Positions 2,574 to 64,000 of a DNA stretch of 64,000 nt are shown piece by piece. Position 1 is the stretch's first letter. Every line of letters begins with the position of its first letter. This DNA is from Escherichia coli (GTDB lineage: Bacteria > Pseudomonadota > Gammaproteobacteria > Enterobacterales > Enterobacteriaceae), in assembly GCF_001677475.2 (NCBI RefSeq), contig NZ_CP015229.1. One strand, given 5' to 3'. Position numbers and translations under genes: made by a program. A model generated the notes under the pieces. That model searched no databases, was not told the origin of the DNA, and was given only the letters and a program-made list of their open reading frames with translations.

Positions 2574-3728
<1,155 letters not shown>

Positions 3729-56816: not shown

Positions 56817-57516
56817 GGGAGTTCTACCGCAGGGGCGGGGAACTCCAAGTGATATCCATCATCGCATCCAGTGCGCCCGGTTTATCCCCGCTGGCGCGGG
56901 GAACACCAAATCCAGCCAGCCGCCGACGGTAATCACCCCGGTTTATCCCCGCTGGCGCGGGGAACACTATGGGGTAGGGCGCTATCAGACATTTACGCAC
57001 GGTTTATCCCCGCTGGCGCGGGGAACACTGCAAGTAACGTTAAGGGAACCGTGGAGACAGCGGTTTATCCCCGCTGGCGCGGGGAACACTTAGAAAACGC
57101 AATGAGCCGCGCGCCCATACCCGGTTTATCCCCGCTGGCGCGGGGAACACGGCACGCTGGACTGAACAAATCCCTGGGCCATCGGTTTATCCCCGCTGGC
57201 GCGGGGAACACACTTACAACCACAATAATAAAAAAAGCCTCGTCGGTTTATCCCCGCTGGCGCGGGGAACACGCCGCTATCTCACCACCAGAACTGTTAC
57301 CCGTCGGTTTATCCCCGCTGGCGCGGGGAACACTTGCAGTGGATAGTCATGTAGCCCGCGCGGGCCGGTTTATCCCCGCTGGCGCGGGGAACACTTTAAA
57401 TACTGCCGTTCCAGCTTGTTGATCGCCGGTTTATCCCCGCTGGCGCGGGGAACACCGTAACTGCCTGTACACGCTGTAATGGCTCACCGGTTTATCCCCG
57501 CTGGCGCGGGGAACAC
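56817..57516 (-). CRISPR. Type I-E CRISPR array: 12 repeats (11 canonical + 1 degenerate terminal) and 11 spacers of 32 bp
   Basis: 29 bp repeat cggtttatccccgctggcgcggggaacac (plus strand) at 56878, 56939, 57000, 57061, 57122, 57183, 57244, 57305, 57366, 57427, 57488 with exact 61 bp period; degenerate repeat gggagttctaccgcaggggcggggaactc at 56817-56845 at the leader-distal (iap) end. The crRNA is read from the minus strand. Confidence 0.98.
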
Positions 57517-61281: not shown

Positions 61282-61818
61282 TTAATTTTGTTCGTTATCG
61301 GCGTCGCCAGCCTGGTAATATTCCAGCGCCCAGCGGATACGGATAAATTCTGTTGGCCGCTGCTGGCGGCGGTGATGATTGAGCAGATCGTCGCTCTCCT
61401 GGCACCAGCGGAAAATATCGTCTGCCAAAGAGATAAGATTGACGGAACCATTTAATAATTTGACCGCGCGACGTAACTGGCGCAGTAATTCATCCGGCGT
61501 TTTGACTGCCGACAGGCGAGTAAAACGCCCCTCAGACATTACCGCCGCCAACTGCGCGGCAAAAGGCTGCCGTTCATCAATGGCTTTTACATTGGCGGCA
61601 ACGGCGGCAACCAGCGCCAGTGCGGTAAAACGCCACTCCTGTGATTCAATTTTCCACAACGTGTGGGTCTGCATCAGCAGTGAACGAAACCCTTCTGACA
61701 GACAAACATCATTAACCGTTGTGCTACGCCGCAGACTGGCACGATTGCCGCGTTTTTCCTGCAACTCTTCGTGCCATTTACGCAGCGTGGCTTTGTGCTC
61801 CTCTTTTACAATACTCAT
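61282..61818 (-). CDS. cse2: Cascade small subunit Cse2 (CasB)
   Basis: 178 aa ORF; its ATG overlaps the cse1 stop (ATGA). Confidence 0.88.
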   Translation of the reverse strand: MSIVKEEHKATLRKWHEELQEKRGNRASLRRSTTVNDVCLSEGFRSLLMQTHTLWKIESQEWRFTALALVAAVAANVKAIDERQPFAAQLAAVMSEGRFTRLSAVKTPDELLRQLRRAVKLLNGSVNLISLADDIFRWCQESDDLLNHHRRQQRPTEFIRIRWALEYYQAGDADNEQN

Positions 61819-63377
61819 TCAGCAGCCTCCTGCTTTTTCTCCCTGGCGGCTTTAGCACTTTGCTTCTCCGCCGATGTTGTAAAATATTTCTTGCGCGCGG
61901 TCATGACGCGTTTCAAATCAACGGGCTCATAAGGATTAGTGAATACACGCTCGTCAAAATCCTGACGCGCGAATAACCAAATTTCCTTTTGCCATTTGCC
62001 GAGTAATTCATCCGCATCCTGACCTTCTTCAATTTGGCGCACTAACCTCAGGAAGCGATGCTGAGTTTTGTTCCAGAAGTCGATATCCACAAAACTGAAA
62101 TCACCCCTTGCACCTTTTGGATCGGAGAACCATGCTTCTTTCAATGCACTCCGTAACAGACTCAGAATCCGTGAAGCCGTTTGCGCAGCCAGCCGCAGCT
62201 TCGGTATCTGGCCTTCTTTTTTATTGAGCAGTAGCGGGAAATGGTGTTCGTACCAACAGCGCGCTTTCATGTTGTCAAAATCATAACCAAATCCCCACAG
62301 GCCCACTTTTGCCTGTTTCAGACTGCTGGCATTAAAGAGTTTCACCACCAGCGCGGGAAGTTCCGTATTGTTTTCTGATTTACCCGTTTCGATAAGGCCT
62401 AACCAGTCGCGCCAGATTAAACCGCCCGGTTGTGGTTTAACGGAGTAAAACTCGCCACCCTCTTTAAGTGGTACACGGTAAGGCGTTAAGGGATGCTGCC
62501 ACATGGCATAATTGGCACCATAATTTTTGGTCGTCATCAGGCTCAGGAGCGCGTCGTTCTGCTCGTCGCAAATATCGCAGTTGCCGACTGTCGTGGTATT
62601 AAAATCAATACGTATACGCCGCGGCATTCCCCAGTACGCCTGGAGTTTATTGACCTGATCATGGGTTACCACCGCACCGGCCAGTTCGCTGGTACGCGTC
62701 GGGCCTAGCCAGGGGAAAATCAGATCGTCAAATTTTTTGGGTAGCGGTAAGTCGGCTTCATCCTGCGGCATCACGTTGAGCCACAGTTTGCGCCACAAGG
62801 GTGTTTGTTGATTGCCCTGATATTCCTGTAATTCAATGAGAGTCGTCATCGGCCCACCGCCGCGTAAACCGGTGCGATAGCCTTTGCCGCCCGCGGGTGC
62901 ATTCAACTGTAAAGAGAACAAGGCCAATGCTAAGCAATGGGGGCACAGATATTCCGTTACACCCCGCTTGATAAAATGGTCTTTATTAAACTTCGTCGTT
63001 TGAGAACCGGGAATCTCAGGCAGTAGCGAAGCGACCGGAACTTTATCTCCCGTGAGCGCCTCAAAATCCTGCATAAATGAAGGGGAATCTGGCCCAAACT
63101 GGAAAGCATGTTCTAAGGACAGCAATGCTTCCCGTAGCTTTTCAGCTTCCAGTCCGTCTTCCCAGATATCATCCCAACGACGATGATCTTTTGGCGCGAA
63201 GCTGGTTTGTAGTAGCCCCAGCAAAAACTGCCAGGCCGCCCCCTGGAGATCTGCCCGCGGCGCAGCGATATCGACAACATTTTCATCCGCCAGATCGACT
63301 GGCGCCAGTTTGCCTGTCGTTCCGTCTTTATAACGAACGGGCAACCACGGGGTTGTTATAATTGAAAAAAATTCCAT
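61815..63377 (-). CDS. cse1: Cascade large subunit Cse1 (CasA)
   Basis: Start at ATG 63375-63377 (MEFFSIITTPWLPVR) gives 520 aa; the sequence is clearly not the K-12 CasA as I recall it, so this is the other E. coli I-E variant. Confidence 0.88.
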   Translation of the reverse strand: MEFFSIITTPWLPVRYKDGTTGKLAPVDLADENVVDIAAPRADLQGAAWQFLLGLLQTSFAPKDHRRWDDIWEDGLEAEKLREALLSLEHAFQFGPDSPSFMQDFEALTGDKVPVASLLPEIPGSQTTKFNKDHFIKRGVTEYLCPHCLALALFSLQLNAPAGGKGYRTGLRGGGPMTTLIELQEYQGNQQTPLWRKLWLNVMPQDEADLPLPKKFDDLIFPWLGPTRTSELAGAVVTHDQVNKLQAYWGMPRRIRIDFNTTTVGNCDICDEQNDALLSLMTTKNYGANYAMWQHPLTPYRVPLKEGGEFYSVKPQPGGLIWRDWLGLIETGKSENNTELPALVVKLFNASSLKQAKVGLWGFGYDFDNMKARCWYEHHFPLLLNKKEGQIPKLRLAAQTASRILSLLRSALKEAWFSDPKGARGDFSFVDIDFWNKTQHRFLRLVRQIEEGQDADELLGKWQKEIWLFARQDFDERVFTNPYEPVDLKRVMTARKKYFTTSAEKQSAKAAREKKQEAAE

Positions 63378-63752
63378 ACGCTTTCCTCGCAAATAAGACC
63401 ATCCATGGTAGGTTGTCCATCACCATATTCAAGAATCAATCGAAAAGAGAGATTACATCATATTAAATGAATATATTGAAAATTAGATTATTATTAAATA
63501 ATCAATAAATCACACGAATATATAAAGATAATTTTCTATAATGCTTTTCGCTCAGGCTCTATCACTTAATAAAAACCAAAGTATTCTTTATCAAAAGGTT
63601 TTTCAACTCTGCTTCCGGACATTGTTACATATATCAATAACTCTTAGAGATTTTCTTTATTTCGAATAACCCTTATTTTTGATATAAACGTCTTCAGTTC
63701 CCTGTCTAAGGGATTAACCAAGTTAGTGATACACGTATATCATTTTATGCTC
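63378..63752 (-). promoter_or_regulatory. AT-rich cse1 upstream region (cas operon promoter region)
   Basis: About 375 bp of very AT-rich DNA between the cas3 end and the cse1 start, as expected for the cas operon promoter region. Confidence 0.7.
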
Positions 63753-63781
63753 CTGTTCCCCGCGTCAGCGGGGATAAGCCC
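63753..63781 (+). repeat. Solitary degenerate CRISPR repeat-like hairpin, inverted relative to the array
   Basis: Plus strand ctgttccccgcgtcagcggggataagccc matches the crRNA-sense repeat gtgttccccgcgccagcggggataaaccg at 25 of 29 positions with the CCCCGC/GCGGGG stem preserved. Confidence 0.85.
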
Positions 63782-63807
63782 TGGCGTCATCCGACTCCAG
63801 GGCATCT

Positions 63808-64000
63808 CAATCAACCTTACCAATCAATCCCTCCGTAGCCGAATACCCGCAACTTTCGTCATCGGTAACTAAAATCACATTTGCCATCTCCGGATCTTGC
63901 CGCTGTTCAACGCACCACTGCCTGAACGCATCCCCTTCCAGTAAAGAAAACTCATCGCGATGTTTTTTCCACCAGCTTCGACGCACTCTGACAACGCTCA
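63808..64000 (-). CDS. cas3: Cas3 helicase-nuclease, C-terminal end (gene starts beyond window end)
   Basis: Open minus-strand frame ending at the stop at 63808-63810 (...EGLIGKVD*), located upstream of cse1 as in type I-E loci. Assignment is by position; only 64 codons are visible. Confidence 0.6.

Follow-up and report, generated by a model that had tools for sequence, protein, structure and literature searches.

An apparently stray copy of the CRISPR repeat at positions 63753-63781 (plus strand) of a 64,000-nt stretch of the Escherichia coli chromosome (NZ_CP015229.1; referred to as the window) probably represents the second repeat, psiR2, of a creR-type gene, i.e. a degenerate, leaderless mini-CRISPR of two repeats that lies on the strand opposite to cas3 and casA (cse1) and would mediate self-repression of Cascade. 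Its product is very likely a CRISPR RNA (crRNA)-like RNA that steers Cascade onto its own cas promoter. This reading builds on the repeats, their hairpins and exact spacing, a protospacer-adjacent motif (PAM) with adjoining seed complementarity and the covariation of these features across alleles. The element was assigned to the CreR kind of regulatory mini-arrays because of its location on the opposite strand between cas3 and casA, its divergent repeats, the partial PAM-proximal seed match and the presence of a fixed guide without a leader. Elements of this kind, the place where they lie and the way in which they work are already established, and the mechanism is not new; this E. coli allele and a sister allele, an explicit covariation series and a census of the loss of the module are added here.

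The near-canonical repeat psiR2 (CTGTTCCCCGCGTCAGCGGGGATAAGCCC) is unique in the window and agrees with the reverse complement of the array repeat (reference repeat: GTGTTCCCCGCGCCAGCGGGGATAAACCG) at 25 of 29 positions. It is inverted relative to both the array and the cas genes, and its stem is intact, with the loop reading GUCA instead of GCCA; apart from the uniqueness, all of this had been reported in a preceding sequence-only reading of the window and was reproduced. The distance to the cas3 stop codon was measured as 25 nt, close to the 27 nt given there. Within the first 21 nt, which would form the CasE-bound 3' hairpin handle, 19 positions match the canonical repeat, and the unit folds with a free energy of -16.7 kcal/mol (z = -4.6). 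When the window was scanned for the repeat, the next-best site outside the array scored 19/29 and corresponded to the degenerate terminal repeat of the array itself. The likeness of psiR2 to the array repeat is far beyond chance.

psiR2 is not a solitary repeat but belongs to a very small, degenerate array, in which it is the second of two repeats. The sequence-only reading had stated that no second repeat was present within 61 nt on either side, which proved incorrect: the motif GGGATTAACC at 63710 is located exactly 61 nt (29 + 32) upstream of GGGATAAGCC at 63771. The corresponding upstream repeat, psiR1 (approximately 63692-63720, plus strand), consists of the hairpin CCCT-GTCTA-AGGG at 63700-63712, followed by the handle-like sequence ATTAACCA at 63713-63720, which matches the canonical handle ATAAACCG at 6 of 8 positions; its stem is degenerate, and the fold reaches -7.2 kcal/mol. 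Beyond GTTCCC and GGGATnA[AG]CC, psiR1 and psiR2 have little in common. psiR1 was missed by ungapped matching (at least 17/29) and by plain local alignment, because its stem is 2 nt shorter, and was recognized via the handle motif, the 61-nt register and comparison with other alleles. At a threshold of at least 9/10, the motif GGGATAAACC occurs at only five non-array sites on both strands of the 64-kb window, two of which are the psiR1 and psiR2 motifs; at the base composition of the cas3-casA spacer, the chance of such a motif is 1.6e-5 per position. The option of a solitary orphan repeat unit was discarded in view of the partner repeat at exactly 61 nt, and that of a canonical CRISPR array in view of repeats that share little and a guide matching the host's own cas spacer region. 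The repeats are two only, and the region upstream of psiR1 is a short promoter-like stretch, unlike an array leader. A search of 63300-64000 against Rfam returned no family, the sole match being a chance snoRNA hit (E = 0.95).

Between the two repeats, at canonical spacing, lies the 32-nt spacer-like guide segment psiS (63721-63752, plus strand; AGTTAGTGATACACGTATATCATTTTATGCTC). It is identical in the window and in E. coli GF43 and N3, although the flanking DNA is only ~96% identical. Targets were sought in the 64-kb window and in the fetched loci, with PAM-proximal runs scored on both strands of the whole window (128 kb) and every sixth position skipped as in type I Cascade. The best non-self match to the psiS seed in the whole window falls into the same spacer, 79 nt upstream (63611-63642, minus strand), and is flanked by a functional PAM. 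The predicted CreR target thus defined (63611-63645, minus strand) comprises the PAM AAG (CTT at 63643-63645 on the plus strand) and a protospacer running from 63642 down to 63611 (AGTTATTGATATATGTAACAATGTCCGGAAGC). The sequence following AAG in the target (AGTTATTGATATATGTAAC...) and the start of psiS (AGTTAGTGATACACGTATA...) agree over 11 effective consecutive positions. Pairing in the window includes positions 1-5, 7-11, 13 and 15-17 (16/32 overall), with positions 6 and 12, at which the sequences are mismatched, left unpaired; these two positions are known not to pair in type I Cascade (PMC10120712). Not one of 2000 shuffled psiS sequences reached the observed run when a functional PAM was required, and 1 of 1000 did so with any PAM. 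In GF43 and N3, the run extends through position 17, amounting to 15 effective positions in GF43.

The target is situated 234-265 nt upstream of the casA ATG and ends 4 nt from the -35 box of a candidate casA promoter (63578-63606, minus strand), which was identified by eye and is composed of TTGAAA at 63606-63601, a 17-nt gap and TACTTT at 63583-63578. In the otherwise diverged allele of E. coli BEC1, boxes of the form TTGAGT-17-TATTTT can be read by eye in the same position. On the plus strand, a putative extended -10 box of creR (TGaTATAAA, 63680-63688) was likewise read by eye; with it, transcription would begin around 63695-63697, on the 5' edge of psiR1. In most alleles, inspection by eye shows a -10-like box, frequently of the form TGnTAnnnT, 5-8 nt upstream of psiR1.

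For comparison, loci outside E. coli were obtained through CasA homologues, yielding 12 alleles in total (the window, GF43, BEC1, ECNB21, K-12, a Salmonella enterica variant, Klebsiella spallanzanii, Atlantibacter, Chimaeribacter, Cronobacter, Citrobacter rodentium and Raoultella). The same layout is common to all 12 alleles, from nine genera, while the psiS sequences are unrelated between lineages. The order in loci with a long cas3-casA spacer is a -10-like box, the psiR1 hairpin, a psiS that is 19-32 nt long, a psiR2 close to the canonical repeat, a GC-rich hairpin (present in most of these alleles, not in K-12) and the cas3 stop codon. Among the loci obtained through CasA homologues, every one with a long spacer has the module; most E. 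coli strains with the cas variant of the window lack it. In each of the eight alleles that were folded, exactly 8 nt separate the psiR1 hairpin from psiS, the stem sequence varies from one allele to the next, and the repeats have decayed divergently, such that psiR1 keeps the handle and psiR2 the hairpin. The best in-spacer match of psiS is flanked by an AAG or ATG PAM in 11 of the 12 alleles, and in 11 of 12 it is equaled by no more than 1 of 1000 shuffled spacers. Guide and target were also found to change together. Between BEC1 and ECNB21, psiS is changed at position 15 (T to A), and the targets show the identical change at this position; between BEC1 and the window, psiS diverges from position 10 onward and the target diverges along with it, with 19/21 positions paired in BEC1 and mismatches only at 6 and 12. 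Moreover, in BEC1 and Atlantibacter a C-G pair of the psiR2 stem is replaced by T-A through a compensatory double change.

Position 6 of psiS is mismatched in 12/12 alleles and position 12 in 9/12, a pattern that fits the notion that the flipped-out bases in Cascade are unconstrained. The position-6 mismatch was rejected as a significant signal, because with ~8 independent lineages and a neutral expectation of ~0.1 it is only marginal. In the Cronobacter locus (L106), ATC stands in place of AAG or ATG beside the best psiS match, which has 12 effective positions (1/1000 shuffles) and lies near position 234 of the reoriented spacer; either Cascade accepts another PAM there or the site is bound weakly.

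Several observations weigh against a functional creR gene in the window. The psiR1 hairpin is weak (4-5 bp, z = -1.6), which makes cleavage by CasE at this site uncertain. The A at 63629 creates a mismatch at protospacer position 14 that is absent from GF43 and N3, the closest relatives, and shortens the contiguous pairing from 17 to 13 nt. A consensus promoter scan called neither of the two promoters read by eye and returned two matches in the spacer, about the level of shuffled sequence; for the creR promoter, the miss is probably due to a weak -35 box. The strict seed run of the K-12 allele is not significant on its own (168/1000 shuffles), with psiS matching its target at 14 of the first 16 positions. 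Finally, the element is absent in its entirety from over 99% of the E. coli strains that carry the cas variant of the window and is therefore dispensable in the species. The type I-E systems of E. coli are generally silenced by H-NS. Together with this silencing, the absence of the element from so many genomes, the strong degeneration of psiR1 and the two single-nucleotide polymorphisms of the window that weaken pairing relative to GF43 and N3 (63629 in the target and 63796 in the hairpin described below) would be expected if the element were a non-functional fossil, i.e. an inverted mini-array that was duplicated from the CRISPR and decays neutrally, with a historical or chance match of psiS. 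We consider such a fossil improbable: 11 of 12 alleles with unrelated psiS sequences each retain a PAM-flanked seed match in their own spacer at a level reached by at most 1 of 1000 shuffles, psiS, target and stems show compensatory changes, and the handle boundary is kept at exactly 8 nt from psiS. The window copy with its two pairing-weakening polymorphisms may nevertheless be weakened and drifting towards loss of function.

Under the creR reading, transcription, processing, loading and binding of Cascade, and repression are predicted to proceed as follows. The promoter just upstream of psiR1 would give rise to a short plus-strand RNA, which CasE would cut at the base of the psiR1 and psiR2 hairpins, leaving psiS (32 nt) between an 8-nt handle (AUUAACCA) and a 21-nt hairpin handle. 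One of the roles suggested in the sequence-only reading, that of a site for CasE on an antisense RNA, is compatible with this scheme as one of its steps. After loading of the RNA, the Cascade-CreR complex would bind the AAG-flanked site at 63611-63645, which abuts the predicted -35 box of casA and lies ~15 bp upstream of the would-be -35 box of creR. Pairing limited to the PAM-proximal 13-17 nt would permit binding of Cascade without licensing cleavage by Cas3, and the bound complex would repress the Cascade operon and possibly also creR. Ordinary crRNAs, which would be derived from the canonical array at 56878-57516, would compete for the Cas proteins, and repression would thus relax as the demand for crRNAs rises or Cascade is inhibited.

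Downstream of psiR2, before the cas3 stop codon, lies a GC-rich hairpin (63778-63803, no strand assigned) with a folding energy of -19.5 kcal/mol (z = -6) in the window and -25.3 kcal/mol in GF43; the T at 63796, which distinguishes the window from GF43 and N3, breaks one of its pairs. Its stems covary in eight sequences, and by eye the hairpin is also present in the C. rodentium and Cronobacter alleles. Taking the psiR2 stem and the downstream hairpin together, 5 of 16 pairs show compensatory changes in the eight sequences. The hairpin probably marks or stabilizes the 3' end of creR, of cas3 or of both. It was examined and dismissed as a Rho-independent terminator, since the strong stem is followed by no T-run on either strand. 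Together with the complement of psiR2, it could alternatively form a tandem-hairpin terminator or stabilizer on the cas3 mRNA, with the likeness to the CRISPR repeat being incidental. Such an arrangement would account for two strong, adjacent hairpins that start 3 nt after the cas3 stop codon, for the covariation of the downstream hairpin across genera and for the cas3-casA gap of more than 400 nt in element-bearing loci, which perhaps reflects separate transcription units. However, neither strand carries a U-tract, a scan of the spacer for intrinsic terminators returned none, and psiR1, the exact spacing, the conserved handle and the covariation of psiS and target would be left unexplained, so that this alternative to creR appears quite improbable. 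The same DNA could, however, serve the cas3 3' end as a second role alongside creR.

The hairpin also bears on the anatomy of the proposed guide RNA. The sequence-only reading had suggested a Cas-regulating, crRNA-like RNA made from the plus strand, the kind of RNA favored here, but with a reversed layout, in which psiR2 precedes the guide, cleavage by CasE falls 8 nt ahead of 63782 and the 32-nt flank at 63782-63813 serves as pseudo-spacer. In many mini-arrays, it is indeed the repeat upstream of the spacer that is better conserved (Shmakov et al., PMC10120712), and in K-12 the better-conserved repeat lies at a similar distance from the cas3 stop codon, which is overlapped by a second, degenerate repeat. 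In the window, however, most of 63782-63813 is locked in the hairpin (-19.5 to -25.3 kcal/mol), whose stem varies in a compensatory manner, unlike a preserved guide; neither the window nor the GF43 locus contains a PAM-flanked partial match, and the best runs there lie beside CGC, AGG or CTT and stay at chance level; and inspection by eye revealed no repeat-like sequence at 63814-63842. We therefore regard the reversed layout as very unlikely and place psiR2 downstream of the guide, with psiS upstream at 63721-63752.

The creR reading is in line with several known systems. In Salmonella enterica, CreR of the type I-E system was shown to repress PcasA ~8.6-fold together with E. coli Cascade; repression was lost on mutation of psiS positions 1-3 and relieved by overexpressed crRNAs (Liu et al. 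2023, bioRxiv 10.1101/2023.03.10.532045). The plasmid list of that study also names a construct with 'creA from E. coli MG1655' (10.1101/2023.03.10.532045). By the definition of creA and creR, the repeats degenerate divergently, and psiR1 keeps the 5' handle and psiR2 the 3' handle (PMC8501985; 10.1101/2023.03.10.532045). The Salmonella gene is located between cas3 and casA on the opposite strand, and it shares with the window element the divergent psiR1 and psiR2 and a psiS that partly matches an AAG-flanked site upstream of casA. The Salmonella variant included in our comparison (L045) has the first 7 nt of psiS (AGTTAGT), the strand of the target and the downstream hairpin in common with the window, whereas psiS and target differ beyond position 7. 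For the published allele of strain ATCC 51960, 15 consecutive matches ~140 bp upstream of casA are described; in the window, mismatches at positions 6, 12 and 14 break up the match, which is located 234-265 bp upstream. Small RNA sequencing data exist for Salmonella-type psiR units (10.1101/2024.10.29.618823).

Mini-arrays have been detected in ~19% of bacterial I-E loci, typically between cas3 and cas8e and transcribed opposite to cas3 (Shmakov et al. 2023, PMC10120712). The E. coli locus in that study (Fig. 4B) features an AAG-flanked target that overlaps an H-NS site upstream of Pcas, with the mismatch at position 6 tolerated (PMC10120712). For K-12, a passage in PMC7074321 that cites Pul et al. 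2010 mentions an 'anti-Pcas' promoter just downstream of cas3 that yields an RNA of 150-200 nt. The K-12/E. coli mini-array resembles the window element in its position, its orientation, its AAG-flanked target ~220-265 nt upstream of casA and the AT-rich spacer. It differs in that it belongs to the other E. coli cas variant, has no psiS or target sequence in common with the window, carries its target on the mini-array strand (the opposite one in the window), possesses a better-conserved psiR1 and lacks the GC-rich hairpin. Its psiR1 reads CCCTAC-TTAA-GTAGGG followed by ATAAACCG; downstream come a psiS of 32 nt and then psiR2, with which the cas3 stop codon overlaps.

More distant relatives are found outside type I-E. 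CreA of the CreTA modules of type I-B haloarchaea (Cheng et al. 2021, PMC8501985) is likewise a leaderless mini-CRISPR with two psiR units, whose RNA has an 8-nt 5' handle and a hairpin 3' handle generated by Cas6. Its partial complementarity leads to transcriptional repression by Cascade without cleavage (PMC8501985), the outcome predicted for the window element. It differs in subtype and host and in that it represses the toxin RNA gene creT, whereas the window allele offers no toxin candidate. Cracr, a class of phage RNAs copying the psiS of Salmonella CreR (bioRxiv 10.1101/2024.10.29.618823), and Racr (PMC10651486) are also repeat-derived RNAs that load into Cas effectors, but they reside on mobile elements and act against the host, whereas the window element is chromosomal and lies inside the cas locus. 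The type II RNAs tracr-L and scaRNA, as they are cited in PMC10120712, are natural guides with partial complementarity that bind without cleaving and thereby regulate their own system or host genes; they differ in employing Cas9 and a tracrRNA-derived guide, in lacking both Cascade and Cas6-type processing, and in their PAM logic.

A 46-codon hydrophobic open reading frame (ORF; MLSIFLLQLVLSLLSKRQTK...) is found in the allele of E. coli BEC1-S17-ESBL-09 (L047, 1222-1362, minus strand), where it closely follows the promoter predicted to be under CreR control and precedes casA. Its ATG has the strong Shine-Dalgarno sequence AAGAGGA at a distance of 5 nt, and an identical protein is encoded in L048. 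It had no match in NCBIfam or PADLOC and no homologue in the protein collection; it could encode a CreT-like toxin or a leader peptide. Its position relative to the promoter and its ribosome-binding site, together with the shared architecture of CreA and CreR (PMC8501985), raise the question of whether the window RNA might be the antitoxin half of a CreTA-like module, which represses a small toxin gene between the target and casA and whose dependence on Cascade makes loss of Cascade lethal. The corresponding 180 nt of the window are AT-rich and contain no minus-strand ORF of at least 20 codons between the predicted promoter and ~63440, and no mini-ORF that combines a Shine-Dalgarno sequence with consecutive rare codons was seen there by eye. 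Given in addition that the BEC1 ORF is without family match or homologue and that most E. coli strains have lost the element and kept the cas genes, which argues against addiction, an antitoxin function is very unlikely. A broader proposal, which we put forward as speculative and itself unlikely, takes creR to be an autoregulatory gene whose target lies between back-to-back promoters: a single Cascade-CreR complex could then repress both the Cascade operon and its own guide in a two-sided feedback, in loci of the BEC1 type the controlled promoter would transcribe the 46-codon ORF first, which would make a CreTA-like safeguard with a protein toxin in a I-E system, and the almost complete disappearance of the module among E. 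coli strains with the cas variant of the window would amount to the loss of this safeguard.

The distribution of the module was surveyed in 5426 complete E. coli genomes. The flanks of the window cas variant were matched in ~2411-2451 of these genomes, only nine of which have the long spacer; in most of the others, cas3 and casA are separated by ~97 nt and the element is absent. The difference corresponds to an insertion or deletion of ~330 nt inside the spacer. Among the nine long-spacer genomes, two (GF43 and N3) share the window allele, and BEC1 and ECNB21, the two that were examined of the other seven, carry another allele. The K-12-type cas variant, present in 1114/5426 genomes, has its own version of the module. 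In other species, the module is absent where the spacer is short, as observed for common Salmonella, E. albertii, C. youngae, Phytobacter and Enterobacter kobei. Both common CasA clusters of Salmonella enterica have a cas3-casA gap of 11 nt without creR, and only a rare variant carries the gene. Within the common 97-nt spacer of E. coli (L002 and L003 at 2920-3000), one decayed repeat with a destroyed stem (ATTCCATCCTTTTCGGTGTATCAAC) can be discerned by eye, followed by a shortened hairpin (CCTGTCGCAGG). If these remnants are real, the common form looks by eye as though it arose from a creR-bearing form by deletion of the promoter, the target and psiS.

These data also bear on a further suggestion of the sequence-only reading, that the element is a relic marking the boundary of a cse1-cas2 cassette, bracketed by inverted repeats that mediate exchange between I-E variants. 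It is true that the element and the array are inverted and lie on either side of casA-cas2, and that the similarity to most E. coli genomes ends close to it. Both flanks nonetheless belong to the same common, non-K-12 cas variant, and the break is the ~330-nt indel within the spacer; loci of the K-12 type diverge in cas3, too, and possess a version of their own; and recombination between inverted repeats would invert the intervening segment rather than exchange it. A boundary relic is therefore the least credible of the alternatives and can practically be set aside in favor of creR.

With creR as the preferred reading, the apparently stray repeat most likely gains a function as a guide gene by which Cascade senses its own abundance and the crRNA load, and anti-CRISPRs or phage mimics could disturb cas expression via creR. 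The joint changes of guide and target provide natural compensatory evidence for the CreR model in Enterobacterales, and the two E. coli alleles are suited to established E. coli reporter assays. The module has been deleted in most E. coli strains with this cas variant (9 of ~2450 keep the long spacer) and is kept in K-12-type loci, a pattern that bears on the apparent inactivity of E. coli I-E systems and on the choice of strains for studies of native I-E regulation.

The window derives from the E. coli chromosome, as its cysD and cysN genes are up to 98.6% identical to those of complete E. coli genomes. It contains the iap-CRISPR-cas region, with the order cas2, cas1, casE, casD, casC, casB, casA, spacer and cas3 as read from the array. 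The canonical type I-E array (56878-57516, minus strand) has 11 identical 29-nt repeats. At its iap-proximal end, one spacer length past the last perfect repeat, lies the decayed terminal repeat GAGTTCCCCGCCCCTGCGGTAGAACTCCC (56817-56845, minus strand; 19/29). casA (61815-63377, minus strand) was identified from its ORF and translation, the annotation of the near-identical GF43 locus and the Pfam family PF09481 found on homologues. The 3' end of cas3 (63807-64000, minus strand), with its stop codon at 63807-63809 and a translation ending in ...SATEGLIGKVD*, agrees with the GF43 annotation; the gene runs off the window. Both genes lie on the minus strand and are separated by a spacer of 429 nt between the cas3 stop (63807) and the casA start codon (63377). 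CasA is 95-97% identical to its closest relatives at the protein level, and casA and the 3' end of cas3 show ~92-97% nucleotide identity to the common non-K-12 variant of E. coli. A 7-kb contig labeled as a Collinsella sp. metagenome-assembled genome (L006, JAIJJM010000114.1) encodes a CasA protein with 96% identity, together with a 97-nt spacer of the E. coli type and the cas3 end, and is almost certainly mis-binned Escherichia DNA.

No phage or viral match to psiS was found in IMG/VR or among the GenBank phages. A scan of IMG/VR for the handle followed by the psiS seed gave 57 matches, a number close to chance by rough estimate, none of them in a repeat-like context, and blastn against the GenBank phages retrieved only short records that are really CRISPR arrays. 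Four such records of 1.5-3.4 kb (OR845838.1, OR851156.1, OR851017.1 and OR851230.1) bear the names of Escherichia or Salmonella phages, each contain as many as 25 matches to the I-E repeat and appear to be CRISPR arrays deposited under phage names; AGRM01000002.1, included in the phage collection, is a contig of a Salmonella chromosome.

A further block in the spacer, CCATCCNTGG (minus-sense CCANGGATGG), is located at 63397-63409, ~20-35 nt upstream of the casA start codon. It is kept in most of the variants examined, including those that have the 97-nt spacer and lack creR, and was seen at the same place in loci L002, L003, L005, L009, L012, L013, L045, L108 and L109. This block may constitute a translational or regulatory signal for casA.

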